64,000 nucleotides of DNA from IMG/VR virus record IMGVR_UViG_3300021958_000057, positions 1,103-65,102 of that record; one strand, given 5' to 3'. Position 1 is the first letter of the stretch. Every line of letters begins with the position of its first letter. Position numbers and translations under genes: made by a program. The DNA comes from a virus (taxonomy: Duplodnaviria; Caudoviricetes). The notes below the pieces were generated by a model, which was not told where the DNA came from, searched no databases, and saw nothing but the letters and a program-made list of their open reading frames with translations. This document shows positions 5,731 to 20,604 of the stretch, piece after piece.

Positions 5731-6243
5731 TTAATTCTCCTTGTTAAATTGTTCAAAACTCATTTTAGGCCCAGAGGTTTGAAAGTTTTTCTTTCTCATT
5801 ACTGTCTTTGCAATGAGTTCTAGTTCACCACCTTTTAGATTTAGTACAAAAGGCATATTGATATCTGTCTTCATGTCATTGATAACTGCTTCTGCATCAG
5901 GCCCAAGTTTTGCAATCTTCTTACCATACTTCTTAAATGATTGTTTAAATAGTCTAGTAAGTTCTGCTGGTGTGATTTGTTTGACATTTCTTTTATCATT
6001 TACTCTGTCTAGGAAATGACGAGTAAATTCTACATCTATACCAAGAGATGCAAATATTCTATCTGCATACTTTTCTACTTGGTCTAAATCTGATTTCTTT
6101 ATTTCTTTTTCTGATTGTGCATTTAAGTCTGCAATAGGTACATACTGACCCATACCAGGCCCAGTACTTGCACCACCAGTCGCATAAGTTCCCAACGCAT
6201 CATAGTTGGCATACTCATCAAGATATGTTAAAAAGGTTTTCAT
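5731..6243 (-). CDS. Hypothetical protein with a capsid-targeting-like N-terminus
   Basis: Starts MKTFLTYLDE; globular core FTRHFLDRVNDKRN...INMPFVL. Confidence 0.55.
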   Translation of the reverse strand: MKTFLTYLDEYANYDALGTYATGGASTGPGMGQYVPIADLNAQSEKEIKKSDLDQVEKYADRIFASLGIDVEFTRHFLDRVNDKRNVKQITPAELTRLFKQSFKKYGKKIAKLGPDAEAVINDMKTDINMPFVLNLKGGELELIAKTVMRKKNFQTSGPKMSFEQFNKEN

Positions 6244-7040
6244 TATGCGTTATCCACTAGAATAATTGTAAAGTCTGCTGATATTGTTGCATTTGCAGAA
6301 CCTTGAACTCTCAAGTCAATATCTGTTTTCTCTGTGAATTTTAGGGGAACAGGAAAATCAATTGACTGATTAGATTGATTCAATGATAGTGTAGATGTAA
6401 CTCTAAATGCACCACCGAATGGTCTTTGAAATAGGAACAAGTCCGTTGATTGGTTCTTACTTGCTGATGCATTGATGTTTGTCATATATCCAGTTTTACC
6501 AGCAGGGATTGTATAGAAACATTGTAGTGTCTGTCCAAATCCAGCACCAATCTCTGTAACAACTGTTCCACCAATACTTGCTTGAATCTTACCAACATTC
6601 GTTGCATCATTCATAAATGCACGATTGACTCTAGTGAATGAAGTTGAACCTGTAACTGTACTAGTTCCAGTAAGAGTGAATGACTCTTCTACAAAATCAT
6701 AGTTTGCATCCAACCCTTGAATAGTCACACCACCAGTATCAGAACCAGATGTAGATACTACAGAAAGAGTTCCAGCAGAGTGGGCCCAAGGATATAATGC
6801 AGTTCCAGAAGTATCTGCCGCAGTCCATACAGTTGAGAATGTTGATAGTGCAGTTCCAAAAACTCCACCATATTTGTGAACACCAGAATAACCAGCAAGT
6901 CCACCGGCCGCAATAATCACATTAGACGCAGCACCAAAAGTATTGATGATGTTACCATCTTGATCAGCAATCATCACCACTTCATGGTTAGTGGTCTGTT
7001 GTGGTATGTATGCGTTAGTATACTTACTATATTGTGCCAT
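6243..7040 (-). CDS. Hypothetical beta-rich, probably structural protein
   Basis: 265 aa, G/T/S-rich (HKYG, QGLDANY motifs); lies in a late region. Confidence 0.45.
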   Translation of the reverse strand: MAQYSKYTNAYIPQQTTNHEVVMIADQDGNIINTFGAASNVIIAAGGLAGYSGVHKYGGVFGTALSTFSTVWTAADTSGTALYPWAHSAGTLSVVSTSGSDTGGVTIQGLDANYDFVEESFTLTGTSTVTGSTSFTRVNRAFMNDATNVGKIQASIGGTVVTEIGAGFGQTLQCFYTIPAGKTGYMTNINASASKNQSTDLFLFQRPFGGAFRVTSTLSLNQSNQSIDFPVPLKFTEKTDIDLRVQGSANATISADFTIILVDNA

Positions 7041-7041
7041 G

Positions 7042-7554
7042 TTACTTCATTTTTACCGACTTGTAAGCAAAGTCTGCAATCTTCATAAACTGAGCTTTAG
7101 TGCCATTAAGCATTCTGTCAAGTTTTTCTCTAGCATCTTTTTTAGAAAGTGCATCATATACTTTTGTAATTGCACTTGCAGTAAACAAATCAACTTTCAT
7201 CTGACCATCTGACATTTTTACTGGTTTGTTTTGTTTATTTTTGACAATGCTTCTTAAAACTTTTAGATTATCTTCTGCAAGAAGTGACTCACGATTAAAG
7301 TCATTAAGTGATTCTTTAACTTTTTCTACGAACTTAGATTTCTTCTGTTCCATTCTTCTTTTTCTAGATGCTTCTAATTTTGCTTGATGTGCCTTATATT
7401 CTTTTGTTCGTGCATCAAGTAATTTTTTCTTTTTCTTTTTCATCATTGCATCTGGTGGCATTGCAACTGCTCCACTACCAGCGTTATTGGTAGGTGCATC
7501 TTCTTCAATTTCTTGACCAGTATATGCATTAATTTCTTTCCATTTAGATGTCAT
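7042..7554 (-). CDS. Hypothetical prohead-core/internal-protein-like protein
   Basis: EEDAPTNNAGSG, a poly-K run and [ILV]xE sites (IEE, LAE). Confidence 0.45.
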   Translation of the reverse strand: MTSKWKEINAYTGQEIEEDAPTNNAGSGAVAMPPDAMMKKKKKKLLDARTKEYKAHQAKLEASRKRRMEQKKSKFVEKVKESLNDFNRESLLAEDNLKVLRSIVKNKQNKPVKMSDGQMKVDLFTASAITKVYDALSKKDAREKLDRMLNGTKAQFMKIADFAYKSVKMK

Positions 7555-8161
7555 CTTTAATATCCTCCAAACTTATATATATTTTTTCTTGGGATTTGAT
7601 ATGAATAACTGGAAAAATCTCAACACCCAAAACTGTATCTACTGGCGCTTCGTCTTCGTAAGCAATAACTTTATCGCCTTTCTTTGCAGATAACTCTTCT
7701 TCTTCTTTATTTAGTATATCGTTAATTAGAACATACTCTCCTTTGGGAAGTAGTTCTCCAAAACCAATAACTTCCTCTGATATATCATCATCAAACTCTA
7801 TATTGTTTTCTTTGAGATATTTCATAAATTCTTTTTCAAACATATCTGGGTCATCTACAGATTCTTTGAATGTATCTTTTAATAGGAATAGTGCAGCTGC
7901 ATATGTACCAACTTTAGTTCTAAGTCCAGGCACTTTTGAAAATATTTTTTTGATATTGAATACTAACTTGTGTAAAATTGTATATGCGTTTTTCTGTTCT
8001 ACTGTTGCAAGTTCTACTGCTGGTTGAGTGGACTTTGGTTTCTTAATACGATTACCTTTTTCATCAATGATACCTAACTTAAACGCATCTGTCTTTTCAA
8101 ACGGAGTAGTAAGTAACTTTAGAAATCTGTAGGTAACAAATAAATCAATCGCCCTGCCCAT
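7544..8161 (-). CDS. Conserved T4-like hypothetical protein
   Basis: YRFLKLLTTPFEKTDAFKLGIIDEKG...YTILHKLVFNIKKI, recognised as recurring in T4-like phages. Confidence 0.6.
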   Translation of the reverse strand: MGRAIDLFVTYRFLKLLTTPFEKTDAFKLGIIDEKGNRIKKPKSTQPAVELATVEQKNAYTILHKLVFNIKKIFSKVPGLRTKVGTYAAALFLLKDTFKESVDDPDMFEKEFMKYLKENNIEFDDDISEEVIGFGELLPKGEYVLINDILNKEEEELSAKKGDKVIAYEDEAPVDTVLGVEIFPVIHIKSQEKIYISLEDIKDDI

Positions 8162-8523
8162 TATAGTTCCTTTAATATCTTATCTACATTATCATCTTTA
8201 GTAATGTGATTTAATTCATCATCTCTAAGTATATTTAGAAATAATAAAAATGATTTCAATGCTGACCAATATTCTTCTTGTATTTTATATAACAAAAGTG
8301 TTGCACAAGCATCAGCACCAAACACATTATTTAATACAATAATATGATTTAAGAGTAACCTTTCTTTTAATACTCCAGTATCATAATATTTTCTTAAAAG
8401 ACGTTTAATATATTTAAACCTCTTTAAGTCATCTTCAAATTCTTTTTCACCCTCACAATGTGGATTTGTATAATTTCTTATAGCAAACATCAACACATTT
8501 TCAGGCGTTATTTTTTCATACAT
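8161..8523 (-). CDS. Conserved T4-like hypothetical protein
   Basis: FAIRNYTNP...DDLKRFKYIKRLL...LNHIIVLNNVFG, recognised as recurring in T4-like phages. Confidence 0.6.
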   Translation of the reverse strand: MYEKITPENVLMFAIRNYTNPHCEGEKEFEDDLKRFKYIKRLLRKYYDTGVLKERLLLNHIIVLNNVFGADACATLLLYKIQEEYWSALKSFLLFLNILRDDELNHITKDDNVDKILKEL

Positions 8524-8975
8524 TATGATATAGTGGCGTAAACTTTACATGAATTATTTCTTACCATTTCATAATTAATATTCAAACTCAAACCACCCTC
8601 AATCATATGTGAAATTCCATCATCACTTAAAAATTCGTCAATAGGTGTATCTGTGTCTTTACCAAATCTACCACCGAATAATGTTAATGGAATACTAAAT
8701 GAACCACTTTTTCCTTCCATTGTAGGAATAGGCCCACCTAATGCTAAACCAATTTTTCCAAGATTATTTTTTAATCTATTAATAGCGTGTTCTGCAACAA
8801 TATACTCGTGGTCTGCAATTCCACCAACGATTGCATTTAATCGTCTAAGAACTGCTGGATTACCAACTTCAGATGGATTTACTTCAAGACTACCAGCAAA
8901 GTTGTTTGGATTTTCTCCAACAGGCCCAGTAGGGAATCCACTATCTTCTTTCACGAAACTTTTGAAACTTTTCAT
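8523..8975 (-). CDS. Hypothetical protein with a capsid-targeting-like N-terminus
   Basis: Starts MKSFKSFVKED; AAGGA SD upstream. Confidence 0.55.
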   Translation of the reverse strand: MKSFKSFVKEDSGFPTGPVGENPNNFAGSLEVNPSEVGNPAVLRRLNAIVGGIADHEYIVAEHAINRLKNNLGKIGLALGGPIPTMEGKSGSFSIPLTLFGGRFGKDTDTPIDEFLSDDGISHMIEGGLSLNINYEMVRNNSCKVYATIS

Positions 8976-8992
8976 TTTCTTTTCCTTAATCT

Positions 8993-9024
8993 AAAAAGGG
9001 GAGAGAGTTAATCCCCTCTCCCCT
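8993..9024 (-). terminator. Rho-independent terminator
   Basis: Minus strand AGGGGAGAG-loop-CTCTCCCC followed by TTTTT. Confidence 0.75.
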
Positions 9025-9025
9025 A

Positions 9026-9033
9026 TATTTAGG
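9026..9033 (-). promoter_or_regulatory. Possible variant late promoter (CCTAAATA)
   Basis: Shares the TAAATA core of the late consensus; intergenic. Confidence 0.35.
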
Positions 9034-9054
9034 TAGACTATAGATATTACTTAA

Positions 9055-9537
9055 TTAGGAAATATCTATGATGTCAGCGACAATATCTGCACCAACGTCA
9101 GCAAAACCAATGATTGCCCATGCAGAACCAGTCCACATTAACATTGCACTATCGCCATCATCAACAAAGTTGAGGTCAGCATAGCCCAATCTATTTTGAG
9201 GTGTACAGACAGATGCACCTGCATCTGTGTCAGCAATTATCATTTTAATTTGACCTTGCACAGTTCCATCAGCAAGTGTTGTTGCACCATTAGTAGCTTC
9301 TAGTCCTAATAATGTTACAGCAGTTGTAATTGAAATAGCACCAGAGTTCTGTACAGCAGTCATATCTTGAAATGAATTTGAAAATCCGATAAAAGACGGC
9401 AAGTTATTAATGAAGTTAGTTACTGAAACCTTCTTATTAATTGGTGTTCCTGTTGGATCATCAATTATATGAAGTAAATCAGCACCAGCTACACCAGTAC
9501 TTATGTCTGTCAGAGCGGTTACTTTTTTATCAGCCAT
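9055..9537 (-). CDS. Probable virion decoration/fibre protein, tandem copy 2
   Basis: 160 aa, closely similar to 9570..10052; A/T/G/D-rich. Confidence 0.55.
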
Positions 9538-9569
9538 GAGGCTTCTCCTTTACAGTTAAATACTAGTTA

Positions 9570-10052
9570 TTAGTTAGCAATATCAATTAAGTCAGCAGGA
9601 ATATCGGCACCTACGTCTGCGAAACCAATGATTGCCCAAGCAGCACCAGTCCACATTAACATTGCAGTATCTCCGTCATCAACAAAGTTTAAGTCTGCAT
9701 ATCCAAGACGAGTCTGTGGAGTACATACTGAAGAACCACCATCTGTGTCGTGAACAATAATCTTGATTTGACCTTGTACAGTTCCGTTTGCAAGAGTTGT
9801 TGCTACGTTATTTGATGTAGTTTCTAGTAAAGAAACAGCAGTTGTAATAGATACTGCAGCTGTTTGCTCTGAAGTAAAATCTTGAATTGAATTTGAAAAT
9901 CCAATAAAAGATGGTAGGTTATTAATAAAGTCTGTTACAGATACTTTCTTATTAATAGGTGTTCCAGTAGGGTCATCTACAACATGAAGTAAGTCTGCAC
10001 CAGCTATGCCTGTTGACAAATCTGTCAAAGCGGTAATTTTCTTATCGGCCAT
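9570..10052 (-). CDS. Probable virion decoration/fibre protein, tandem copy 1
   Basis: 160 aa, MADKKITALTD...[17 protein letters not shown]; paralog of 9055..9537. Confidence 0.55.
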   Translation of the reverse strand: MADKKITALTDLSTGIAGADLLHVVDDPTGTPINKKVSVTDFINNLPSFIGFSNSIQDFTSEQTAAVSITTAVSLLETTSNNVATTLANGTVQGQIKIIVHDTDGGSSVCTPQTRLGYADLNFVDDGDTAMLMWTGAAWAIIGFADVGADIPADLIDIAN

Positions 10053-10103
10053 TTGGCTTCTCCTTTAATCTAAACCCTCTTAATTGAGGGAATGTTACTG
10101 TGG

Positions 10104-10325
10104 TTATTTATCCACATCACTTGAGTCAGAAACCACTTCTGGCTCAACATTATCAATTTCTTGTAAAAAGTTATCACATTGTTGTTTTGCACCCATAAGT
10201 GCATTTAACAATGCAACACTTTCTATTTTTTGTTGTTCTAGTTCTGACATCTTTTGTCTGGCTTTTTGTATATCAGAATCTAAAATAGTTATTCTTTTTT
10301 TTATCATATTCTTAGTAATAGTCAT
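10104..10325 (-). CDS. Small coiled-coil hypothetical protein
   Basis: ORF track 10104..10331; ATG at 10325 follows a GAGG SD. Confidence 0.55.
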   Translation of the reverse strand: MTITKNMIKKRITILDSDIQKARQKMSELEQQKIESVALLNALMGAKQQCDNFLQEIDNVEPEVVSDSSDVDK

Positions 10326-10352
10326 TTTCACCTCACTTAATCATTACAAAGT

Positions 10353-10360
10353 TATTTATA
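10353..10360 (-). promoter_or_regulatory. T4-type late promoter
   Basis: Exact TATAAATA, intergenic. Confidence 0.75.
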
Positions 10361-10364
10361 AGAG

Positions 10365-11252
10365 TTAGGATACTGTCATTGTTGCATCTGCATCAGCAGT
10401 TAGTGTTAAGTCTGCAGCCATTCCAGTACCATTATCAACAGTCATAAATGCACCTAAATCTCTACTTGAACTATCTGTTCCATCTAGTGTGATAAATGAT
10501 TCTGCGTCATCAGTATCATCTAATGCAGTTGTACCACTCTCCATTTTAATTTTATCATCAGCAACAAGTTTCTCTATTGTTCCACTATTTAAAGAGATTG
10601 CATCATCAGAATTAATACCTAGTGTATTGTTTGTTACATTTGATGTTCTGGTGTCTGTACTCGCTGGTAGAGAAAATGCCATAATACCCTCTGATAATAC
10701 AGATACACTTGAATTAAAATCCATTGTTGTTCCAAAAGTTGAATCTAATGCACTTGCTTGTTTTAATTGTAATTGTGGTGTGCCAGTTACATGAATTGGT
10801 TCGTTGAAGTAAACATATGCAGTTACATCTCCAAGTGTTGATGATGCAACACCAGTAAACGTATCTCCGTCTGGAAAAAATGCTGTCTTATCAGTTGTAC
10901 TACCTAATGTAATATGTGTAGGTGTAGGAACGTCAATAGACTTCTGTAAATTTCTACTACAAACCAGAACCTCTGGTTGTGCAGCCTTGTTATCGTTTCC
11001 AGAGTTTGCATTGCCAGGTGTAAACACCCACCCAGAATTAGTAGCAATTACTTTCTCTTTTGCATACGGACTATCTCCGTTTGCTCGTTCTGTTAAATAT
11101 GATGGTTTAGCTTCAGAAGCACTTGCATCAACAGCAATTAATCTGTCACCTTCATCAGTATTAGCAGCTGTTCTGTCTAGTAATACAAATCCATCATTTT
11201 CTGATTCACTTGCATCTTCCAAAACTACATTAAAACTTTTTCCAAAAGGCAT
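10365..11252 (-). CDS. Acidic, probably structural protein with 'LLD-x-T-AA/DG...D-x-G' motifs
   Basis: 295 aa D/T/S-rich; central VYFNEPIHVTGTPQLQL resembles an Ig-like strand; late promoter upstream. Confidence 0.5.
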   Translation of the reverse strand: MPFGKSFNVVLEDASESENDGFVLLDRTAANTDEGDRLIAVDASASEAKPSYLTERANGDSPYAKEKVIATNSGWVFTPGNANSGNDNKAAQPEVLVCSRNLQKSIDVPTPTHITLGSTTDKTAFFPDGDTFTGVASSTLGDVTAYVYFNEPIHVTGTPQLQLKQASALDSTFGTTMDFNSSVSVLSEGIMAFSLPASTDTRTSNVTNNTLGINSDDAISLNSGTIEKLVADDKIKMESGTTALDDTDDAESFITLDGTDSSSRDLGAFMTVDNGTGMAADLTLTADADATMTVS

Positions 11253-11274
11253 CTTTCTCTCCTTATTTTCCTAT

Positions 11275-11282
11275 TATTTATA
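11275..11282 (-). promoter_or_regulatory. T4-type late promoter
   Basis: Exact TATAAATA, then an AAGGAG SD and the ATG at 11252. Confidence 0.8.
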
Positions 11283-11283
11283 A

Positions 11284-11799
11284 TTATTTGAAACCTAATC
11301 GTTTCAATTCGTTTAAAGTTTTTGGAACAGCAGTATGGTGTATACCAATACCACCTTTAGCCTCCCACTCTTTAATATTTTTAATATAGTCATCAATAAG
11401 GACATTTGGTTTTCCATCAGTTTGAGCAAATGCTTGTTTCTGTGAACGCATTACCAAGTGTATATTACCTCTCTTAAAATTAGTATTTTTAGAGAGCCAC
11501 TTCATTTTTCCAGACTTTGAGTTTGGGTCTTTACCAGAATATGCAGAGAGTATATGTGCATCATATCTTAAAATACTTTGTACTATCTTCTTTGCACCTG
11601 GCATCCACTCTAAGTTCGCCCAAAAATCTTTCGTATTAGTAATCTTTTCCCACCTTGTTTGTTTGTTTGCAAGAGGAAAAGGCATACCAATAACCTTTTC
11701 TGCACCTTTTAGAAAGTCACAGAGAACCATATCCATATCACAATAGATTGATGATAAGTCCTCTTTGCTTACTTCTAATAGGTCTTTTAAACTTTTCAT
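11284..11799 (-). CDS. HAD-superfamily phosphatase, 5'(3')-deoxyribonucleotidase (NT5C)-like
   Basis: Motif I YCDMDMVLCDF, motif II ILSA, motif IV VLIDD, and the C-terminal WEAKGGIGIHH typical of phage NT5C-like enzymes. Confidence 0.75.
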   Translation of the reverse strand: MKSLKDLLEVSKEDLSSIYCDMDMVLCDFLKGAEKVIGMPFPLANKQTRWEKITNTKDFWANLEWMPGAKKIVQSILRYDAHILSAYSGKDPNSKSGKMKWLSKNTNFKRGNIHLVMRSQKQAFAQTDGKPNVLIDDYIKNIKEWEAKGGIGIHHTAVPKTLNELKRLGFK

Positions 11800-12347
11800 T
11801 ACTTAACATTCTTCTTTCCAATAGAAGTTTCAGTCTTCACTTTTTCTTTCATATCTGGGTCAACACTAACTTTGGTCATTGGTTTCCCAGTCATAGTCTT
11901 ATCTTCCTTTTTAGAAGATTTCTTTTCTTCTTTCTTTTCAAATGGATTATGTCCTTCTTCTACACCCCACATATTAGCAAGTACTGAACGCATAGAGTTA
12001 TTCTTCTCTTGCATCATGTTTACTTGTTTATTCCAATCTTCTGTAGTTTGGCCAGGAGTAACTTTCTTTGTATGGTCTGCATACTCTTTAGTACCCATCT
12101 CATATGCCTCATTATTATCTTTCTTCATTGCTTTAGCAACTGCCTTACGTCTTTTTGCAAGATACTTATCAGATGCATCCTTATCTCCATCATTGTCTAT
12201 ATCACCATCTTCTTTACCAACTGGATCAAGTTTTTCTTTTACTTTTTTTTGTTCTTCTATTTGAGATTTTACTCCACTTACAGCATTAAGAATTGCTTCC
12301 TCAAGACTGCCTGGCTTTCTCTCAAAATATTTACTGTTATAACTCAT
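11799..12347 (-). CDS. Highly charged protein with a DxDxDG (EF-hand-like) motif
   Basis: KLDPVGKEDGDIDNDGDKD; K/E-rich. Confidence 0.5.
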   Translation of the reverse strand: MSYNSKYFERKPGSLEEAILNAVSGVKSQIEEQKKVKEKLDPVGKEDGDIDNDGDKDASDKYLAKRRKAVAKAMKKDNNEAYEMGTKEYADHTKKVTPGQTTEDWNKQVNMMQEKNNSMRSVLANMWGVEEGHNPFEKKEEKKSSKKEDKTMTGKPMTKVSVDPDMKEKVKTETSIGKKNVK

Positions 12348-12348
12348 G

Positions 12349-14625
12349 TTATTTCCCCTTTACAGTATTGAGCAAGTCTTTGTAAGACTTTGCAATTGAA
12401 TTTTGAAACTTCAATTTATCATCTGAAGTTCTCATTTTCATGTGCATATCTATTGCTTTTTGTGCAATTCTCATATCCACTTTCTTTTTACCATCTGCAA
12501 ATTCTACGTCTTTATTTCCTCTCATGGAAACAGACTTTCTAAGTTGCATGATAATATTCTTTCCAGCGTTTTCTATGTCTTTATCAGTTGCAGTATTATC
12601 TACATCTGCTGGGTCTACTTTCTCTGTAAGAGTTTGATATCCCATACGAATATTAGATACTTGTTCAATTAATTCAAGTTCTTCTTTATACATATTTAGT
12701 TCAAATGGTTTAGAACCACCCTTATTGTAAACTTGGATTTGTAGATTTCCACCTTTGCCTTTTAGTTTGTAGGTATTAGTTTTACCCTCTGAAGGTTTCT
12801 TAGGCCCAGTTGCAACTTTATTGTCAATTTCTTTTGGGTCTACTGTGATACCCATTTTCTTTTTTGCGTAATCATATGCGTGTTGCATTGCACTACTAAA
12901 GTCTTTATGATAAAGGTCGTACTTTTCTTCAAGTTCTTCACTTTTCATACTTCTATGTTTAAATGCAGTTCTAGTTAATGGTTCGCCTTCTTTTGCATTT
13001 GGATACATTTGTAAAAAAGTATTTGGGTCATTTCTACCAATAACATCTAAAATTTGCTCAAGTGGGTCTGTATCTAAATTACCAATAAACTTTTTAAGTT
13101 TCTCCCTTGAAGCTGGGTCTGATGCTTGAACATATAATGCTCTTGCCTTTTCAAAATCTTTCTTGTCCATACCACCAGTTTTTGCAAGGTCAGCTAATGC
13201 TTTTGCACCTTTTTCTTGTGGTTTAGTATCTTTGAAAGAACCAGGCTTATATGCCATTTCATTAACTTCTTCTTTAAGTTGAGATTTGTCAACTGTATCA
13301 CCAATACTCTGTGCAGTTTTTAGTCTTGCCAGTTTTAGAGGTGCAACATCTTTGAATCTCTTCTCTAGAGAACGTCTGTCTAGTTTCAAATCTCTTTCAT
13401 CACTACCCATTGAATAGATTTTCATATCTTTTCCAACAAGAGCATATTTCATCTTTGGTGCTTCTTCTAGTGTTTCTTCTTTAACTTGTTTAAATGTAGC
13501 ACTTCTACCATACGCCATTTTTATAAAATCTTTTATTTTATTTGCATCACCTGTAACTTTTATACTATCTTTACCAAATGGTTTTGCATCAAATTTAACA
13601 CCCTTGAAACTAGGGCTTCTGTGTGCGTTGTTCATTGTTGCGGCAGTAGATTTAGGATCATCTATGTTGCCAACAATCATGGTTACGTTAGATGCTTCAT
13701 CAATCTCAACACTTTCTTCATTCATAGCTTTCTTTAATAACTTATCAGTCATGTCGGTTGTCATGCCAGATGTAGTCGCATCACCAGTTGAACTTCTACC
13801 GATAACAGTTCTTAAAAAATCACTTACTTTTTTCTTTGGGCCGATAACTCTAACACTTGCACCAACTGATGCAGACCTAAGACCTAACCCTCTAGCATTT
13901 TTTGCTACTTGTGCTGCAATCTTTTTTGTATCACCTTTTTTAATAAAGATATCTTCTTGTGCTTCATCAAGTATTTCTTCTTTTATATCTCCAACCTTTG
14001 CACCAGGCGAGTTAAGAACATAATTAGTATCTGGGCCTTTGCGAACTGTGGCACCAGTTTTCTTTACTAACTTCATCATATCTGATTTACTACCACTTGC
14101 AACAACTTTATTTTTTAACACATGATGATACATTGCTTCATCAAGTTCAACTTCTTCTGTAGTAGGAACTAAAAAGTAATCTCTAAGTTTATTCATACTG
14201 TTAGATGAAATAGCAAGTTTGTTAGTCCACCAACTTGGTAATGAATCTTCTGGATTCATACTTTGTAGTTTTGATGATATTTGCATTGCATCTTCAATCA
14301 TAATTTTACATTGACGAATTGCAGAAGCAACATCTGTATGTCCATCTTCATTTACTTCTTTTTTTTCATTTGTTTCTGCGTGTTTCTTCATCATATCTTG
14401 AACAATGTCACTTTCATACTCATCTGGAAATTTCTTCTTAACATCTTTCATAAGAGCACTTGTATTACCCTTATATTTTCTATCACTAACCATTCTCTCT
14501 ATGTCTTTTTGTGTCATAGGATTGACTCTGGCAGTCTTTTTTCTAAAGGCTGTACTTGTGACTCTTTCACTAAGCAACTTTTCTTCTATTTCCTTTACCT
14601 CATTTAATAGTGTTGACATTCTCAT
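12349..14625 (-). CDS. Large modular protein, probable head-internal polyprotein
   Basis: 758 aa built from short basic modules separated by EE(V/L)E(L/I)DE-type linkers. Confidence 0.55.
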   Translation of the reverse strand: MRMSTLLNEVKEIEEKLLSERVTSTAFRKKTARVNPMTQKDIERMVSDRKYKGNTSALMKDVKKKFPDEYESDIVQDMMKKHAETNEKKEVNEDGHTDVASAIRQCKIMIEDAMQISSKLQSMNPEDSLPSWWTNKLAISSNSMNKLRDYFLVPTTEEVELDEAMYHHVLKNKVVASGSKSDMMKLVKKTGATVRKGPDTNYVLNSPGAKVGDIKEEILDEAQEDIFIKKGDTKKIAAQVAKNARGLGLRSASVGASVRVIGPKKKVSDFLRTVIGRSSTGDATTSGMTTDMTDKLLKKAMNEESVEIDEASNVTMIVGNIDDPKSTAATMNNAHRSPSFKGVKFDAKPFGKDSIKVTGDANKIKDFIKMAYGRSATFKQVKEETLEEAPKMKYALVGKDMKIYSMGSDERDLKLDRRSLEKRFKDVAPLKLARLKTAQSIGDTVDKSQLKEEVNEMAYKPGSFKDTKPQEKGAKALADLAKTGGMDKKDFEKARALYVQASDPASREKLKKFIGNLDTDPLEQILDVIGRNDPNTFLQMYPNAKEGEPLTRTAFKHRSMKSEELEEKYDLYHKDFSSAMQHAYDYAKKKMGITVDPKEIDNKVATGPKKPSEGKTNTYKLKGKGGNLQIQVYNKGGSKPFELNMYKEELELIEQVSNIRMGYQTLTEKVDPADVDNTATDKDIENAGKNIIMQLRKSVSMRGNKDVEFADGKKKVDMRIAQKAIDMHMKMRTSDDKLKFQNSIAKSYKDLLNTVKGK

Positions 14626-14629
14626 GTTC

Positions 14630-17600
14630 TTATCCTTTCATCAAATCTGTTACAGACTTGGCACTCCAAAACTTACATGACCAATATCTTGCTTTATACT
14701 TAGGGCCAGGATTGTCGCAATTGTGTCTTGCACGAAAACTTTTTCTTCGTTCTGGGTCATCTCGTTTGATTTCCATATTAGGGTCACCAAACTCAACCTT
14801 TACAACATTTCCTTTGTCATTTTTGACATAAACCTTATATTTTTTAACATCACCTCTTGTTGGATTATTTAGTTCTTTTCCACTCTTATCATCTTTTTCT
14901 GTCATCTCACCCCATGCATTTCTCATCATCATTCTGTAAGGTGAATCAGTTGGTGACGTAAGAGTTTTCATTCTTTGAAATTTACTTACACCAGCTTTAC
15001 CTTTTTTTGGCACTTTTAAATTTTTAAGTTTCTTATCTTTTTTTAAAACACCCTCAATATAATTTAACATTTCCTCACCCTTTGCTCTTTTCATCTGTGC
15101 AGCTGAGGGAGCTCCTTTTGCACCTTTCTTTCTCATCTTCTCACCAGAACCTCTTTTGATTCTTTGTCTTTTCTTGTGTATGTTTGCCCAAAGACTTTCA
15201 TCAATATCTGTTCTACCAAAGCCTGGTTTTGGGTCACCTTTTTCTATGGAGTCAATATGTTGTTTCATGTAATCATCTACATCATCTGCAAGTCCAAGTT
15301 CTCCAGCAGTTGACATAATTTTATTATACAATTCTTTTGCTTTTACTTTTTGTTCGTCTGTTGCTTCTCCAGCATCCATAACTTCTTTTTCTAACTTATA
15401 GAAATCATCTTGTAATCTTACAAGTGGTTCAATGTTTGGTTTATCTTTATTTGCACTCATAACCTTTTGTGCAGAACCACACATATAGAAAAACTTTGTA
15501 GTATAATTACCTACTGTGATTTCGTGTTCTGGTTGTTCTTGAATAGTTTCTTCCTCTAAACAATCATCACAACAAGCACCAATCTTTTCTAACATCTGGT
15601 CATGGACTTCGTTTAGTTTCCACCACCAGTCATCTTCATATCTCAACTGGTAAATTGCTCTTGTTTGATTAGACTCAAACCATTCGTTTACACTTTCTGG
15701 CCCTAGAACCTCATGTCCTTTTGTTTTCTTCTTTGGTATCATACCTAATTCTTTTTCACTAAAATCTAAGTCAGTAGAAGTATAATTATCAGTTACTTTT
15801 TTCTTTATAACATTATAACCAGATTTAGTTAAATCTTTAAAAAACTTTTGAATATCTTTACCACCAACATCATCTTTAACATTAAACTTACTAAGGTCAT
15901 CAGCATGATAATCTCTTAATTTATGTTTTTTAACCAGTTTATCAATAGTCTTTACATGAGGTTCTTTTCCAGTTCTTATAGGTTTCTCGTCTGGAGCATC
16001 TATTTGAAACTCTACACCAAAAGTTTTTGTTACTGTTTTCTTTTCTTCTATTTCAACTTCTTCACTTGCACGAACTTTATCTGCAAGGTCTTTGTCTGCC
16101 TTACCCCATGTACCAGATGACTTTGTTGTAAATGAGTTAACTCTTGCAAGTGCCCATTGTTGTGGAGTTGCCCCTGGCCTATGTCCAGTTTTATATGCAG
16201 CCATTCCTCTATCATATACCTTTTTCAATATAGAATAAGGCATACCAGTTTTCTTTGCTTTGTTAACAAGAGCAGTAATCTTTTCGTCTAAGTGATAAAT
16301 CTCCATATCTACTTCCTCATTTTTGTCTTTTTTATCTAGATAGGCTGCAACTGCCATATCTTTAATTTTTTTATCTGATTTACCTTTAAACTGTGGTGCA
16401 TCTGATTTTCTAAAATCGTCTACATAATCTCCAACATCTGCGTTCTTACCAAGTTTTTCTTTGATACCAAGTTTCTTTCTCATATCATCAATCTGTTTCA
16501 TAATCTCTTTGTGTTTAGGAGAACCAGCAGGAGCTCTCATTCCTTTATTATAAAGTTTTAGTAGTTCTAATGGTATTTTAATATCTTTCTCACCATACAT
16601 CTGTTTAAACTTCTTAGTATGTTTAGATGGTTTAGTTGTTGCAGATTTATCTCCAGGCGCAGGCCCTTTCTTTCCTTTTTCAAAGTGTCTTGCACGAGCT
16701 TGTTTAGTAGACTTTGACATTGCATCGCCTTCAGTATCTTTTGCATAATACTTTGCTGGTTGTGTACCCTCTCTATCTTTAACATCTTTATCTTGTTTTG
16801 TATCTCTTTCTCTAAGTCTAGGTTCTCTACGATTATCAGATGGTTCTTCGTTTTTAAGATTACTTGGGTCATTGTTCATAGGATTATTATCTATGTGTCC
16901 AACATCCATACCTTTAACTGCATTATCACCCATGACTCTACGAGCTTTGTTTCTAGAAGAACGTCTTGCAATTTGTTCTGGAGTTCCTTGATAATTTGCA
17001 TATTCTTTCTTGTAATCTCTTTCTACAATATCATATAACCAAGTCTTATGTACTTTATTGTTTTCATCTACAAATGATAAGTAGTTTGTACCTTTGTTAA
17101 TTACTTTACCTTTTATACCTTTTGATTCTACTATGTCACCAATATTCCAGAGTTTTCCAGTCAGATATAAATCTCTTAGAGATTCAAAGTCAGTCATCTC
17201 TCCCATATCTTTTTCTTCACGAATGCCCATGTTTTTACGAACATCATTGTATAGTTTAAGTGCATCTCTAAAACCAGATGGAACACCAGTCTTGAAAGTA
17301 TCAAAATCTCCAGCAGAAGCTGCAGCTCTCATCTTTGATGCAGACATACCAGAAACACCCTCTGCATCTGGGTCACGCTCTCCAGCAGATACAACTTCTA
17401 TATTATCAAAACCATAATATCCATGTCTACCATTTACACCATTATATTTGTTGAGTAAACCCTCAAACTCTGTAACTCTATCAGAACCAACAACCATAAC
17501 AATTGCTCTATGACCTTTGTTATGTAATTCAACTGCAATGTCAAATACCATTTTGATTTTTTTATTTGCCATAATATTCTTTGCATACTTTGGAAACATC

Positions 17601-17821
17601 TTTCTCATGTATGCAACTTTTAGTGCAAAGGGTAATGGGTCTTTCTTTGGATTCTGTGATTGTGATGAAAACACATACATCTTAGAACCAGCATTTTTAG
17701 ACTGTTCTCTTGCAAGTGCATCAATTAATTTTTCGTGTCCAGTTGTAGGTGGATTGAATCTACCAAAAGTAAAGATTGCAGTATCACCTAACTTTTCAGT
17801 TATTTGAGAAAAATTACGCAT
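14630..17821 (-). CDS. Multidomain protein: N-terminal HIGH-superfamily nucleotidyltransferase (cyanophage 'cytidyltransferase'-like), an HNH-like module and many small modules
   Basis: FTFGRFNPPTTGHEKL, VVGSDR, SAGERDPD and MSASKMR motifs; HNH-like DVGHIDNNPMNNDPSNL. Start moved to MRNFSQITE at 17821 (8-nt overlap with the upstream gene). Confidence 0.75.
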   Translation of the reverse strand: MRNFSQITEKLGDTAIFTFGRFNPPTTGHEKLIDALAREQSKNAGSKMYVFSSQSQNPKKDPLPFALKVAYMRKMFPKYAKNIMANKKIKMVFDIAVELHNKGHRAIVMVVGSDRVTEFEGLLNKYNGVNGRHGYYGFDNIEVVSAGERDPDAEGVSGMSASKMRAAASAGDFDTFKTGVPSGFRDALKLYNDVRKNMGIREEKDMGEMTDFESLRDLYLTGKLWNIGDIVESKGIKGKVINKGTNYLSFVDENNKVHKTWLYDIVERDYKKEYANYQGTPEQIARRSSRNKARRVMGDNAVKGMDVGHIDNNPMNNDPSNLKNEEPSDNRREPRLRERDTKQDKDVKDREGTQPAKYYAKDTEGDAMSKSTKQARARHFEKGKKGPAPGDKSATTKPSKHTKKFKQMYGEKDIKIPLELLKLYNKGMRAPAGSPKHKEIMKQIDDMRKKLGIKEKLGKNADVGDYVDDFRKSDAPQFKGKSDKKIKDMAVAAYLDKKDKNEEVDMEIYHLDEKITALVNKAKKTGMPYSILKKVYDRGMAAYKTGHRPGATPQQWALARVNSFTTKSSGTWGKADKDLADKVRASEEVEIEEKKTVTKTFGVEFQIDAPDEKPIRTGKEPHVKTIDKLVKKHKLRDYHADDLSKFNVKDDVGGKDIQKFFKDLTKSGYNVIKKKVTDNYTSTDLDFSEKELGMIPKKKTKGHEVLGPESVNEWFESNQTRAIYQLRYEDDWWWKLNEVHDQMLEKIGACCDDCLEEETIQEQPEHEITVGNYTTKFFYMCGSAQKVMSANKDKPNIEPLVRLQDDFYKLEKEVMDAGEATDEQKVKAKELYNKIMSTAGELGLADDVDDYMKQHIDSIEKGDPKPGFGRTDIDESLWANIHKKRQRIKRGSGEKMRKKGAKGAPSAAQMKRAKGEEMLNYIEGVLKKDKKLKNLKVPKKGKAGVSKFQRMKTLTSPTDSPYRMMMRNAWGEMTEKDDKSGKELNNPTRGDVKKYKVYVKNDKGNVVKVEFGDPNMEIKRDDPERRKSFRARHNCDNPGPKYKARYWSCKFWSAKSVTDLMKG

Positions 17822-18197
17822 CTGATTTAGAACTCCTTGCATCTTTTACTTTTTGTATTTCTTTTTTCTTTACAACTTTTACAGATTTCATTGCAATCTT
17901 ATTAATCATACCACTATACCTTGCAGATATAATTTGGTCAACCTTTATTCTTTGTGCAATAGGCATTTCTTTATATTTTGGAAAAAATTTATCTAAGACT
18001 TTTTGTTTTGCTAACTTTGCAGCTTTAACTTTAATCTTTTCTGGAGATGCAACTTTTAGTTTTGACTTTTCTACTTTCTTTTTAAAAGCAGAAGTTTTAG
18101 TTAATCGTTTCATACGAATAGCTGCTTTTCTTCTTGCAGCTTTATTTACAACTTTTAGTTCTGATATATCAGAATATAGTTCTAAGAAAGTTTTCAT
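17814..18197 (-). CDS. Very basic hypothetical protein (possibly nucleic-acid binding or core)
   Basis: K/R-rich, 127 aa; starts MKTFLELYSDISE. Confidence 0.55.
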   Translation of the reverse strand: MKTFLELYSDISELKVVNKAARRKAAIRMKRLTKTSAFKKKVEKSKLKVASPEKIKVKAAKLAKQKVLDKFFPKYKEMPIAQRIKVDQIISARYSGMINKIAMKSVKVVKKKEIQKVKDARSSKSDA

Positions 18198-19435
18198 TTA
18201 TCCCATGCCTTGATTGCAGTAAAGTTGTTAAACGAGAACTCCATTCTGTCCACTAGTTTAACAGCACCACCACTAACTCTATCAATCGCAACATAACCCT
18301 CTGGGTTAGTTACTTTAAATCCATTTGAGGTCTTGATGAACGTATCCGTCAAACCCTTAACACTATTTAGTTTTTTTACAATTTGCATTTTTGCATCAAC
18401 TAATAGGTTTTGGAACGTAATAATATTAGTTAAGTTGTTAGTGTGTTTCTTTACTTCTCTTACATACTCTTTCTGTATGTTCGTATATTTATCTTTACCT
18501 TTTGTACTTTTTGCTTTATCTATTTGTTTCTGAATAGATTGTTCAACCCAAGATTCATATCCTTTTGCATGAGCTTTAGGATTACTAATCTTTTGACCTT
18601 GACGAACCTTACTATTATTATATGTTGATAGTTTAGCACCAACAATCGCACCTTGCATACTTTCTTGTAGTTTCATAAACTTAGTTAACATAGGTGCGCT
18701 TATTTTTTGGAAAGTCTTACCAGTTTGTGAAAGTAGACCAGTAACAACAGCAGTTTCTTTTGCATTAAATGTTGCAGTACCAGATGCATCTTTATAAGTT
18801 GCATCATCCATCCATATACTTGGAGTTTTCTTTAGACCAGATATATCAACACCAAAAGATGCAGTCATGTCTTCTAGTTTACTTCCAGAATATGTTGTGT
18901 GCCATACAATACCAACTTTGGCTTTGTTTATAACCTTACCAAAATCACTATCAACAGGCACAGCGTAGACAATAGTATTAGGTTGGAAAGTGTAGTACTT
19001 AATACCTTCAATTGTGGTTGACTCCACATCATTTGTGAACATGAGGTCGCCTTGTATAACGGACTTGATTCCGAGTTTTGAGAACTCTGCGAGTGCGACT
19101 TTGAATTTTTCAACAAGTGCTCCTTTGAGGTCATCATCTATCTCCTTAGCTGTTTTGTACAGTTTGGGATTGACGTTGAATACCGACTTCTTTGCAACAA
19201 AGAACTTTCCATCAGAGGGGTCAATACCAGCAAAGATTGCTGGAGCACCATCCCATTTGACTGTCATATTAATACTGGAACGAGCATTACCAGCCAACAT
19301 ATCTCTAAGAGATTGTAGGAAGTTAATTGCAGCTCTGCCACCTGGCACACCATTGTTGATAATTTCATCTTCAATGTGTTCTAGATGTAAATTCTTTCCA
19401 GCTTTACTTTCTTCTAATTGTTTGAAACTAATCAT
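18194..19435 (-). CDS. ATP-dependent ligase-like covalent nucleotidyltransferase (RNA-ligase-like)
   Basis: Motif I TVKWDG, motif III IQGDLMF, motif IV PEGYVAI and motif V AVKLVD, in the correct order; no OB-fold tail. Confidence 0.65.
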   Translation of the reverse strand: MISFKQLEESKAGKNLHLEHIEDEIINNGVPGGRAAINFLQSLRDMLAGNARSSINMTVKWDGAPAIFAGIDPSDGKFFVAKKSVFNVNPKLYKTAKEIDDDLKGALVEKFKVALAEFSKLGIKSVIQGDLMFTNDVESTTIEGIKYYTFQPNTIVYAVPVDSDFGKVINKAKVGIVWHTTYSGSKLEDMTASFGVDISGLKKTPSIWMDDATYKDASGTATFNAKETAVVTGLLSQTGKTFQKISAPMLTKFMKLQESMQGAIVGAKLSTYNNSKVRQGQKISNPKAHAKGYESWVEQSIQKQIDKAKSTKGKDKYTNIQKEYVREVKKHTNNLTNIITFQNLLVDAKMQIVKKLNSVKGLTDTFIKTSNGFKVTNPEGYVAIDRVSGGAVKLVDRMEFSFNNFTAIKAWDK

Positions 19436-20541
19436 TCTTGCACTCCGCTGTATTGCATTTTCAATTGTAGATACTGTCCTAGTCTACCTTGACCAGAAGT
19501 TCCTTTTTCTGGTCTTACACCAGAATCAGAACGAATGGTCATCTTTAATGTTTTCTTATCACTAGGTGAGTGTATATCAATTAAATACTCTTGTACAGAA
19601 TTATTATTTAAATATGCATAATGTTTAGTTACTAATGGTATCATATCAACAATATCATCAATCTTTTGTTCAGCAGTCATACCAACAGCTTTAACCATTA
19701 TAAGGGGAACTTTTTCTTCTTTCCTTTGTAAGTTAAATGTATTTTGAACCCAATCTATAAACTGTTCTTTTTTTAAATTATTAAGAATATCACAGAAATT
19801 TTCTCTAGCAACAACTAACATCTCTGCATATAATTTATTTGCGCCATCTTCATCTTCTACAAAATAATCAACATATGCCTTAGTAACTTCCTTATTTTTG
19901 ATAAAGTTACTTTTACTTGCAACTTGTTTAACACCAGGCACTTTAGAATAAACTCTATTCCATAAGTCAGACTCTAGTTTAGAGGTAGAAACTCCCAGAG
20001 CTTTATATTGAGTTCCAACATAAGTATTTTTTAGTGGTTCTTTTGATTTTGCTGTTCCTGCTTTAAGACTTATACCTATTAATTCTTTGTTTTTAAATTC
20101 AACAAATATATCTCCAGCATGGTTATTTGGAACACCTTTAGGTTTTGCTCTATATCCCCATATAACATTTTTAATAGGTTTTGTTCTATCAAGGGTATAT
20201 AGATAATTAGTAATACCTATTGCGTTTTCTATTTTAGTTTTTAAAAATTTATCATCTAATGTTGGTAATTTATCAAGTACCAATTGAGCAGAATTTGCAT
20301 CTTTAGTAGAAAAAGAACTTTTAGATTTTCCAGCCTTTAAATTTAATGTATATAAAAACTTTTTGAAATCTTCAACTGAAGATGGTCTATACTTATTGTT
20401 AAAAGCGAGTGCTGGAAATAATTCAGTAATTGATGCATTGAGAGTTGTATCAACTCTTTCAAAAAGATATTGAACCTTATTTACTGGTGCGACATATTTT
20501 TCTTGAATTGGTTTGAGTTGACGAACATACTTTCTTAACAT
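19432..20541 (-). CDS. Putative PD-(D/E)XK restriction-like endonuclease
   Basis: N-terminal ITELFP helix, then HAGDIFV...LIGISLK (D...SxK variant). Confidence 0.5.
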   Translation of the reverse strand: MLRKYVRQLKPIQEKYVAPVNKVQYLFERVDTTLNASITELFPALAFNNKYRPSSVEDFKKFLYTLNLKAGKSKSSFSTKDANSAQLVLDKLPTLDDKFLKTKIENAIGITNYLYTLDRTKPIKNVIWGYRAKPKGVPNNHAGDIFVEFKNKELIGISLKAGTAKSKEPLKNTYVGTQYKALGVSTSKLESDLWNRVYSKVPGVKQVASKSNFIKNKEVTKAYVDYFVEDEDGANKLYAEMLVVARENFCDILNNLKKEQFIDWVQNTFNLQRKEEKVPLIMVKAVGMTAEQKIDDIVDMIPLVTKHYAYLNNNSVQEYLIDIHSPSDKKTLKMTIRSDSGVRPEKGTSGQGRLGQYLQLKMQYSGVQE

Positions 20542-20571: not shown

Positions 20572-20604
20572 TATTTATATAACAGAGAACTTAGTGTTTG
20601 TCAA
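20572..20604 (-). promoter_or_regulatory. Late promoter (TATAAATA at 20572-20579) overlapped by a possible sigma70 promoter (TTGACA at 20599-20604)
   Basis: Exact late box; TTGACA-17nt-TATATA overlaps it; GGAGA SD before the ATG at 20541. Confidence 0.75.

Follow-up and report, generated by a model that had tools for sequence, protein, structure and literature searches.

An enzyme-led phage polyprotein that is probably packed in the capsid and cut at T4-type head protease motifs

The 64,000-nucleotide stretch of DNA from a T4-like ocean phage analysed here (the window) contains on its minus strand an open frame in which a nucleotidyltransferase (NTase) is followed by a chain of small modules, and the locus raises the question of whether this chain acts as one large protein or is the precursor of many. 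The initial annotation had proposed an accreting polyprotein that delivers many effectors through one packaging leader. Since the modules are joined at a T4-type head protease motif and the protein has a T4-style leader, it is probably packed in the capsid and cut into pieces. The reading that we prefer, with a probability of roughly 0.6, is that of a late, head-targeted cargo precursor that a gp21-type protease would cut into the NTase and small modules.

The frame encodes 1070 aa from an upstream ATG. Its likely start is M8 (ATG at 17821-17819), at whose equivalent the homologues begin, giving a protein of 1063 aa; this ATG overlaps the stop codon of an upstream 127-aa gene. Residue numbers of sites and modules are counted from the upstream ATG (1070-aa frame), not from M8. 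An assembly chimera or fused-gene artefact was ruled out by the presence of the identical protein on two contigs and of 4,286 homologues (588-1873 aa), and internal duplication of modules by a self-comparison of the polyprotein that gave no match. More than 11,000 clusters at 50% identity match the polyprotein, and megablast of the locus against isolated phages gave no match. All 11 Glu sites listed in the initial annotation (residues 16, 274, 345, 418, 462, 520, 600, 696, 769, 882, and 982) and every motif listed with them are present in ORF 14630-17821. The gene and its modules are as follows (an arrow marks a candidate cut):

14630-17842, minus strand: polyprotein gene, open frame, likely start at 17821
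17833-17838, minus strand: Shine-Dalgarno sequence AAGGAG, 11 nt upstream of the M8 ATG
17795-17821, minus strand: leader MRNFSQITE (residues 8-16), CTS-like propeptide ending I-T-E↓K (homologue comparison and T4 CTS rules)
17195-17794, minus strand: module A1 (17-216), HIGH-superfamily (TxGH ... SASKMR) NTase with a PPAT/NMNAT-like Rossmann fold (Pfam, PHROG, Foldseek)
17021-17194, minus strand: module A2 (217-274), small beta-barrel attached to the NTase, ends IVE↓R (model, homology breakpoints)
16808-17020, minus strand: module B (275-345), HNH-like (GHIDNNPMNNDPSNL), ends LRE↓R (sub-threshold HNH_3, PHROG)
16589-16807, minus strand: module C (346-418), basic conserved unit (QDKD..GTQPAKYY..STK..PAPGD..KPSKHTKKFKQMYGE↓) (homologue alignment)
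16457-16588, minus strand: module D (419-462), helical hairpin, ends IKE↓K (model, homology breakpoints)
16283-16456, minus strand: module E (463-520), acidic helical unit (KLGKNAD...), ends LDE↓K (model, homology breakpoints)
16043-16282, minus strand: module F (521-600), DUF5824 (YDRGMAAYKTGHRPG..QQWALARVNSF), ends IEE↓K (Pfam)
15755-16042, minus strand: module G (601-696), predicted mostly disordered (pLDDT about 30-50), ends FSE↓K
15536-15754, minus strand: module H (697-769), acidic helical unit with a C-terminal CCDDC motif, ends IQE↓Q (model, homology breakpoints)
15197-15535, minus strand: module I (770-882), acidic helical bundle (QPEHEITV...GFGRTDIDE↓) (pLDDT 85-97)
14897-15196, minus strand: module J (883-982), very basic unit (SLWANIHKKRQR..., pI 10.7), ends MTE↓K (phrog_16028, 2.8e-17)
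14633-14896, minus strand: module K (983-1070), C-terminal beta/alpha unit (RKSFRARHNC...ARYWSC), DUF5754-like, usually the last module (phrog_7595, 4.8e-10)

The call of a HIGH NTase was borne out. PF01467 (CTP_transf_like) matched residues 25-127 above its gathering threshold (24.9 bits; cut-off 21), a PHROG cytidyltransferase family matched residues 16-294 (6.5e-84), and the family consensus retains TTGH and SASKMR. The model of this module (pLDDT about 95) has a Rossmann fold by Foldseek, which matched it to PPAT and NMNAT (E 3e-4 to 1e-2, TMt 0.6-0.68; 1o6b with E 3e-4 and TMt 0.68), PPAT being level with NMNAT. Against the NMNAT equivalog TIGR01526 of NCBIfam it scored 19.4 bits, far below the cut-off of 341 for NMNAT proper, and a PDB sequence search with the NTase or the A1 family profile gave nothing significant. 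In leaderless homologues, similarity stops at residues 211-216, at the A1/A2 border.

The HNH call for module B did not reach the Pfam cut-off: HNH_3 at residues 310-329 (E 0.009) scored 16.1 bits against 24.8. PHROG matched HNH families at 3e-5 to 6e-3 and phrog_4590 at 1.7e-8; GH..NN..NL..N is present in the sequence, and pLDDT is only 49-64. Among 123 homologues, 35 have module B and 94 have module C, the accessory module with the widest distribution, whose end ...MYGE↓ is invariant ahead of many different downstream modules; G is nearly exclusive to close relatives (one of 123 representatives). DUF5824 (PF19141) matched module F above threshold at 527-584 (1.3e-16, 61.3 bits; cut-off 25; pLDDT 88-96), and this domain is not mentioned in the literature searched. 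DUF5754 (PF19058) matched module K at 1000-1040 below threshold (17 bits; cut-off 27.4) and is found on 25% of the members of one Atlas cluster resembling K, in which module the R, H, C, Y, W, and C columns are invariant. For modules C, F, and K, the searches yielded no fold assignment. VIA-align of a model of P0238, an NTase-less mini-polyprotein, against 48,161 chains gave helical matches only (Z ≤ 5.2, below the tool's noise guidance), and the matches in BFVD were confined to Caudovirales proteins that are uncharacterised, some of which carry the names ChaB or XkdF. The AlphaFold model of the polyprotein combines a pTM of 0.37 with high domain pLDDT, and thus resembles beads on a string.

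The next question is whether the candidate sites lie where modules meet. The motif [LI]xE occurs 12 times in the polyprotein versus 7.1±2.5 in shuffles (p about 0.05), and [LIVMFY]xE 21 times versus 19.5 (not significant). Since these totals are barely above chance, over-representation was dropped as evidence, and placement and P3 bias were used instead. Border zones were taken as pile-ups of HMMER alignment ends against 150 diverse representatives (residues 209-218, 269-282, 336-355, 416-426, 459-464, 504-524, 591-606, 762-767, 877-882, 922-927, and 971-991) and cover 12.8% of the polyprotein. Eight of the 11 non-leader [LI]xE Glu residues fall inside them (p=8e-6). As to the proposal that the listed sites coincide with module borders, it stood for nine of the ten internal sites, eight lying within a zone and 769 two residues outside one. 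Site 696 has no zone and is thin, its sole support being three alignments that start at 698 and a stretch predicted to be disordered; homology breakpoints are few there because module G is nearly unique to close relatives. Seven of the 11 listed sites are at most three residues from AlphaFold segments with pLDDT below 50 (p=0.014), site 418 lies outside any predicted disordered linker, and at the YGE, FSE, and MTE sites P3 is not L/I. The zones are Glu-rich overall (28 of 74 Glu), so part of the placement signal is linker composition.

Rearranged junctions among the homologues (n = 312) contain [LI]xE in 101 cases versus 32±6 in controls, and [LIVMFY]xE in 168 versus 59±7. A Glu is found at -5 to +1 of the module start in 163 of 169 cases, and for module J a Glu precedes SLW in 15 of 19 different upstream contexts. 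Junction Glu residues have a hydrophobic P3 in 75% of cases versus 32% for the other Glu of the same proteins (p=9e-28), and still in 69% once similar upstream contexts are removed (p=6.5e-14). This P3 is mostly L, I, or V, which is the pattern of T4 gp21 and not the S/A/G of phiKZ-like phages.

These figures bear on another reading, in which the protein would be targeted to the head and lose its leader alone, staying essentially uncut as one large 'polyvalent' protein whose junction motifs would reflect flexible acidic linkers or joints left by recombination. Packaging without cutting is known for polyvalent proteins, N4 vRNAP being an example (PMC5512222); the linkers are Glu-rich in general, and a recurring linker cassette, EEVELDE, could provide the microhomology by which modules are exchanged. 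The motif moves together with its module in several cases, LDE↓K of DUF5824 occupying the first turn of a helix in the prediction, and it may therefore be structural. Composition alone, however, does not explain the hydrophobic P3 at junctions as against other Glu of the same proteins. Tandem double sites (...MYGE↓xxQLDE↓K) occur and resemble redundant cleavage in other prohead-protease substrates; stand-alone modules gain a leader that ends in the same motif at the equivalent position; and a folded 120-kDa protein would be hard to thread through the tail tube. We consider an essentially uncut protein unlikely.

An invariant architecture, named in the initial annotation as a finding that would speak against accretion, was not seen: 125 architectures occur among the 150 cluster representatives, with 28 of them non-collinear. 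Highly variable content, shuffling, and transfer between adjacent genes agree with accretion, but a recurrent core order (NTase, C at 346-418, F with DUF5824, and C-terminal K) means that it is not pure free accretion. This order suggests that some modules may work together rather than as free pieces, and it would also fit a cooperative multidomain protein that is left uncut. Modules had been expected to occur as separate viral proteins as well, and they do: DUF5824 stands alone in genes of 80-90 aa that each have a short leader (phage C48C1 CDS0090, start MITFKKYLEE↓), and module K stands alone in HTVC008M gp131 and in Atlas clusters of 79-104 aa. P0238 and P0243, which both lack the NTase, have MKTF... 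leaders and an altered module order. Modules of the adjacent 758-aa, 127-aa, and 182-aa genes sit inside NTase polyproteins elsewhere. Where the 127-aa protein occurs as an internal module, ...LNE↓, ...IDE↓, or ...LDE↓ stands ahead of it, at about the position of the leader site DISE↓L in the stand-alone protein. Cyanophage matches span only about residues 16-300 of the polyprotein, in line with the statement of the initial annotation that cyanophage homologues of the NTase are far shorter.

The existence of a packaging-type leader was also upheld. MRNFSQITE↓K has F4, I7, and E9 and is one residue shorter than the T4 capsid-targeting sequence (CTS; 9 versus 10), in which targeting depends on residues 4 and 7 and processing on residues 8 and 10 (PMC9026906). 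In T4, replacing the Glu of the site with Asp prevents processing (PMC9026906), and the cleavage sites of T4 Alt are ITE-6 and LTE-619 (PMC5694885). Of 99 diverse representatives (<50% mutual identity), about 70 have MKxFxE(L/I)xE↓A immediately ahead of NTase strand 1. About 25 of the 99 are leaderless (MKKLVFT...), and their junctions are nonetheless similar. In the literature searched, no link of a capsid-targeting sequence to cyanophages or pelagiphages was found.

Mass spectrometry has detected homologous NTases in virion preparations of at least three cyanomyoviruses (S-SCSM1 ORF91, S-SZBM1_140, and S-CREM2 ORF154), in each case as the shorter cyanophage forms and not as long polyproteins. 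S-SCSM1 ORF91 is 40% identical to polyprotein residues 16-310 and starts MKSFLQFLKE↓A; the same method also placed the products of the flanking ORF89, 90, 92, and 93 in virions. There is no discussion of the homologous gene in the Melnitz paper. The proteome papers carry a warning that abundant late proteins may end up in virion preparations by co-purification, and this caution, like the leaderless homologues, would suit a cytoplasmic late enzyme with accessory domains, whose leader and junction motifs would mean something else. Such an enzyme outside the virion is very improbable given that the leader is kept across very divergent homologues and also occurs on unrelated proteins neighbouring the polyprotein gene, that the gene lies in a late operon beside proteins detected in virions, and that at least three studies detected homologues in virion preparations.

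The preferred reading, that of a cut, head-targeted precursor, calls for late expression, a protease, and a scaffold, and the window contains the following:

20572-20579, minus strand: T4-type late promoter motif TATAAATA, 31 nt upstream of the operon's first gene (19432-20541)
49347-50009, minus strand: gp21-type prohead protease (Peptidase_S77; PF03420, 120.9 bits), the proposed processing enzyme
47857-49299, minus strand: gp22-type scaffold (T4_CASP; phrog_207, phrog_237, PF25623), the proposed docking core

The operon containing the polyprotein gene is tightly packed. Of 13 copies of TATAAATA in the window, 12 are on the coding strand, including those directly upstream of gp23, gp22, gp18, and gp19; judged by this motif, the operon would be late-transcribed. 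The protease has a similar N-terminus of its own (MYTLKLISE↓H), and the scaffold contains 16 [LI]xE motifs (3.3 per 100 aa).

A further reading accepts processing in the prohead and takes most modules for assembly material, that is, scaffold or core filler like T4 gp22, gp67, and gp68, which would be expelled before DNA packaging, perhaps leaving only the NTase or basic pieces behind. T4 core proteins are cut to short fragments that exit the head (PMC5694885), three of the modules are acidic (pI 4.7-5.1), and the N-terminal extension of the gp22-type scaffold has phrog_22379 in common with the 182-aa operon protein. Against it, eight of the 11 modules are basic, like DNA-associated T4 internal proteins; extreme variability and frequent absence of modules fit poorly with an essential structural role; and DUF5824-type modules are kept far outside T4-like phages. 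We regard assembly material as quite improbable.

Targeting, cleavage, injection, and the functions of the modules are steps that we infer for the preferred cargo precursor. The 9-residue, T4-CTS-like leader MRNFSQITE would bring it into the scaffold core of the prohead. There, the gp21-type protease would cut after the Glu of hydrophobic-x-Glu motifs, removing the leader and freeing the PPAT/NMNAT-like NTase (about 29 kDa) from up to ten unrelated modules of 5-13 kDa. Pieces retained in the head would exit with the DNA at infection. Because every module would have its own cut site, modules could be gained, lost, shuffled, or moved to neighbouring genes with delivery kept.

With these properties the polyprotein can be compared with known types. 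Like T4 IPI, IPII, IPIII, and Alt, it has a short leader with an aromatic position 4 and a hydrophobic-x-Glu end, late expression, an S77 protease and a gp22 scaffold in the same phage, mostly basic products, and a conserved leader followed by highly variable cargo; it is not homologous to any T4 IP. T4 cargo, in contrast, consists of single units with one cut (IPs) or two (Alt), whereas the polyprotein joins an enzyme to about ten modules with about ten candidate internal sites, recognised from sequence. With the polyvalent proteins of Iyer et al. (2017; PMC5512222) it has in common multiple unrelated domains (2-15 in theirs), a late or virion gene context, and variable architectures. Those proteins are predicted to be delivered with DNA and have MuF/portal, ArdC, or relaxase anchors and often their own zincin-like peptidase (PMC5512222); searches of the polyprotein with Pfam, PHROG, and NCBIfam found no MuF/portal fusion, zincin-like MPTase, or ArdC-N. 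Unlike them, it has no peptidase domain and would be processed in trans by the prohead protease at linker motifs, and its domain set (NTase, DUF5824, DUF5754-like, and small basic units) is different. According to the same authors, T4-like Alt-family ARTs are absent from true polyvalent proteins (PMC5512222). In phiKZ, 201phi2-1, and SPN3US, many head proteins, among them inner-body and ejection proteins, are cut after Glu at short motifs with redundant propeptide sites. Their motif is S/A/G-x-E or A-x-E, whereas P3 in the polyprotein is L/I/V/F/Y as in T4. These head proteins shed propeptides, and a chain-like build from interchangeable modules is not described for them. The NMNAT-like cytidylyltransferases detected in virions of the T4-like cyanophages S-SCSM1, S-SZBM1, and S-CREM2 have the homologous NTase and a CTS-like start, but are about 360-410 aa long with few or no C-terminal modules, compared with 1063 aa for the polyprotein. 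In the cyanophage papers they figure as NMNAT or auxiliary metabolic genes, and neither processing nor a targeting leader is mentioned.

A wider proposal is tentative and, taken as a whole, doubtful: T4-like marine phages, including those of SAR11, OM43, and cyanobacteria, would possess an ocean-wide, hypervariable cargo system. Given a universal leader and universal protease-site linkers, any small module could be inserted into a polyprotein, or shifted from one adjacent late gene to another, and be delivered together with the DNA. Host takeover or anti-defence would be the role of the modules (DUF5824, the DUF5754-like unit, and the basic QDKD...MYGE unit, among others), each selected independently as an effector, and the NTase would be the conserved lead enzyme.

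If the processing is real, the T4 rule of one leader and one cargo protein would widen to a cassette system in which each precursor holds an enzyme and many small proteins. It would also explain the repeated presence of NMNAT-like enzymes in cyanophage virion proteomes and offer a starting point for work on several widespread viral domains of unknown function. With the leader and linker rules, such phages could also be loaded with proteins of choice. The family is very abundant. Since it occurs in phages of the ocean's dominant bacteria, the protein load injected by marine myoviruses may be larger, and vary more, than is currently assumed.

The 64-kb window, out of a 65.1-kb IMG/VR contig (completeness estimate 36%), belongs to a T4-like marine myovirus, and its minus strand carries every gene, including those for a portal, an S77 prohead protease, a T4_CASP scaffold, the major capsid protein, tail sheath and tube, and replication proteins. 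The polyprotein frame almost certainly starts at M8 (ATG at 17821), which is preceded at 11 nt by a Shine-Dalgarno sequence (AAGGAG) and overlaps the stop codon of the upstream 127-aa gene; the equivalent start is used in the database copy and in most homologues. Residue numbers given here count from the ATG further upstream. Among isolates, the closest are Methylophilales phage Melnitz, whose gp18 (650 aa) shows 47% identity to polyprotein residues 8-586, and Pelagibacter phage HTVC008M, with gp130 and gp131 as counterparts. Synechococcus phages contributed 379 matching records, but only over residues ~16-300.

14630..17842, minus strand: polyprotein frame, open for 1070 aa
L001:6001-7953: gp18 of phage Melnitz

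CTP_transf_like (residues 25-127) scored over threshold and DUF5824 (residues 527-584) at 1.3e-16. Matches to HNH_3 and DUF5754 were both sub-threshold, and the HNH-like identity of residues 275-345 is a weak call. The PHROG search returned a cytidyltransferase at residues 16-294 and four families of unknown function (275-352, 525-588, 883-920, and 982-1057), and self-comparison of the polyprotein found no internal repeats. Residues 17-216 are a HIGH-superfamily nucleotidyltransferase (NTase) with motifs TTGH and SASKMR, and residues 217-274 a small beta-barrel. The NTase fold is equally near PPAT and NMNAT (1o6b, E 3e-4, TMt 0.68), and it fails NMNAT equivalog assignment. DUF5824 is confidently a helical domain, and R, H, C, Y, W, and C are invariant in the C-terminal module, a beta/alpha unit; no convincing solved relative was found for either. 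Eight of the eleven modules are basic and, the NTase unit (29 kDa) excepted, their sizes are 5-13 kDa. The AlphaFold2 model (65-sequence alignment; mean pLDDT 72, pTM 0.37) consists of well-folded beads with segments of pLDDT <50 between them.

At E<=1e-3, 11,335 clusters matched the polyprotein, and 150 representatives sharing <50% identity were compared. The proposal of an accreting polyprotein holds in part: these representatives displayed 125 architectures, a count partly inflated by proteins truncated at contig ends, and 28 of the 125 were non-collinear when scored by the eleven modules; against free accretion, one widely recurring order is NTase, module C (346-418), DUF5824, C-terminal module. 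Of the 123 representatives that have the NTase, 94 also carry module C, 82 DUF5824, 54 the C-terminal module, and one module G. The claim that some modules occur as separate viral proteins was borne out by the DUF5824 gene of phage C48C1 (90 aa, starting MITFKKYLEE/, the slash marking a candidate cut) and by HTVC008M gp131, which corresponds to the C-terminal module. Other DUF5824 proteins of 80-84 aa begin MDILNE/K or MEQLNE/K, Atlas clusters of 79-104 aa are similar to the C-terminal module, and P0238 and P0243 are chains without NTase that have MKTF... leaders and differ in module order.

Many family members (P0205, P0243, P0274, Melnitz gp18) also share a mini-module of ~28 aa, PCWD(G/T)(Y/H)KQVGMKKK.GK.VPNCVP, with two conserved Cys and Glu on either flank, which is absent from the window polyprotein. 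A BFVD Foldseek search with the P0238 model retrieved module-containing proteins from uncultured Caudovirales, some under the names ChaB and XkdF (the latter a prohead-protease-like family), and this suggests that modules are fused to protease-type head proteins outside T4-like phages.

All eleven glutamates listed as boundaries in the initial annotation (16, 274, 345, 418, 462, 520, 600, 696, 769, 882, and 982) were found. The motif total is no more than chance ([LI]xE, 12 vs 7.1±2.5 in shuffles; [LIVMFY]xE, 21 vs 19.5), and its placement is more than chance. Module borders were set blind to the motif, from HMMER alignment ends falling inside the partner protein across the 150 representatives; these cluster at 209-218, 269-282, 336-355, 416-426, 459-464, 504-524, 591-606, 762-767, 877-882, 922-927, and 971-991. 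Such zones make up 12.8% of the polyprotein and contain 8 of the 11 non-leader [LI]xE glutamates (p=8e-6). Eight of the ten internal sites fell inside a zone and 769 lay 2 residues outside, whereas 696 is backed only by predicted disorder and by the few alignments that begin at 698; seven of the eleven sites are <=3 residues from a segment of pLDDT <50.

The same motif marks junctions across the family. At 312 junctions with module order unlike the query (11-residue window at the downstream module start), [LI]xE was present in 101 vs 32±6 in controls, and [LIVMFY]xE in 168 vs 59±7. Glu occupied -5..+1 in 163 of 169 starts of seven modules. At these module-start Glu, P3 was hydrophobic in 75%, compared with 32% for all remaining Glu of those proteins (Fisher p=9e-28), and in 69% of 103 after similar upstream contexts were collapsed (p=6.5e-14). 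Tandem sites are common (...MYGE/xxQLDE/K, ...PRLRE/KEELDE/K). Junction P3 is mainly L, I, or V, the preference of T4 gp21, in contrast to phiKZ-like proteases, which prefer S/A/G. Modules of adjacent genes were also found inside NTase-family proteins of other phages (~390 proteins collected): those of the 758-aa protein in 91, the 127-aa protein in 7, and the 182-aa protein in 3. Internal copies of the 127-aa protein are preceded by an acidic linker (...LNE/, ...IDE/, or ...LDE/) whose Glu lies at about the leader-site position of the stand-alone copy (DISE/L). The main rival reading, a polyvalent protein packaged uncut whose junction motifs are acidic linkers or recombination joints, is unlikely in our judgement.

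The polyprotein leader, MRNFSQITE/K, has an aromatic residue at position 4 and I-x-E at 7-9, and MKxFxE(L/I)xE/A directly precedes the first NTase strand in ~70 of the 99 representatives whose N-terminus is complete. In T4, a 10-residue capsid-targeting sequence (CTS) suffices for loading, residues 4 and 7 serving targeting and 8 and 10 processing (PMC9026906), and Alt is cut at ITE-6 and LTE-619 (PMC5694885). Many late-region proteins have CTS-like starts, spread over 5731-20541 plus 28042-29097 (minus strand); counterparts in Melnitz, HTVC008M, and C48C1 carry them as well, and the S77 protease itself starts MYTLKLISE, which is leader-like.

5731-6243, minus strand: protein with leader MKTFLTYLDE
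8523-8975, minus strand: protein with leader MKSFKSFVKE
11284-11799, minus strand: NT5C-like nucleotidase, leader MKSLKDLLE
12349-14625, minus strand: 758-aa protein of beads-on-a-string build, directly downstream of the polyprotein
17814-18197, minus strand: very basic 127-aa protein, start MKTFLELYSDISE/, internal polyprotein module in seven other phages
18194-19435, minus strand: DUF6267 protein, leader MISFKQLEE
28042-29097, minus strand: RimK-like ATP-grasp protein, leader xEKFKSFITE

A copy of the T4 late-promoter motif TATAAATA is found 31 nt ahead of the gene that opens the overlapping operon (20541 to 11284); others precede gp23, gp22, gp18, and gp19, and 12 of 13 copies are on the coding strand. 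Linkers recur in the 758-aa protein (EEVELDE/A, EILDE/A, SVEIDE/A, ETLEE/A, ELELIE/Q), which has no match in Pfam or PHROG. The 182-aa protein (11799-12347, minus strand) and S-SCSM1 ORF92 (L006:4443-6005) have a 46-aa module in common (LDPVGKED.D.DNDG...DKYL..RRKA; 65% identity), and this module is also present in HTVC008M gp133 and a 569-aa protein of another phage (L005). Part of a ~165-240-aa extra N-terminal region before the T4_CASP domain of the gp22 scaffold (47857-49299, minus strand) matches phrog_22379, as does the 182-aa protein. The first half of phrog_455 (764 positions) matches the DUF6267 protein and the second the NTase, so DUF6267-NTase fusions exist in other phages. Two adjacent 160-aa paralogues (9055-9537 and 9570-10052, minus strand) are 79% identical.

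Homologous enzymes have been detected by virion mass spectrometry of cyanomyoviruses in three papers: S-SCSM1 ORF91 with flanking ORF89, 90, 92, and 93 (PMC9602691), S-SZBM1_140 with neighbour _139 (PMC9146016), and S-CREM2 ORF154 (PMC10665884); the authors warn of possible co-purification. ORF91 is 40% identical to polyprotein residues 16-310 and starts MKSFLQFLKE/A. About a quarter of NTase-family representatives are leaderless (MKKLVFT..., MSKTVFA...; e.g., P0162, P0164, P0167, P0197, P0212, and L005:2327-6280) and retain the hydrophobic-x-Glu junctions and the DUF6267 neighbour. That the polyprotein has no virion association appears very improbable, and a scaffold-like role with the pieces expelled is improbable.

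The best-supported mechanism, at a probability of roughly 0.6, is a CTS-tagged precursor loaded onto the scaffold and cut by the S77 protease. The late-expressed precursor would be loaded onto the scaffold core, and cleavage at hydrophobic-x-Glu junctions would release the enzyme and about ten small proteins; cleavage, head retention, injection, and module function are all what we infer. No description of a prohead protease cutting a multi-module precursor in trans was found in the literature searched. A head-targeted, processed polyprotein, as predicted from sequence and models, is computationally well supported and would follow the same logic as T4 internal proteins and Alt, and a logic like that of polyvalent proteins (Iyer et al., 2017).
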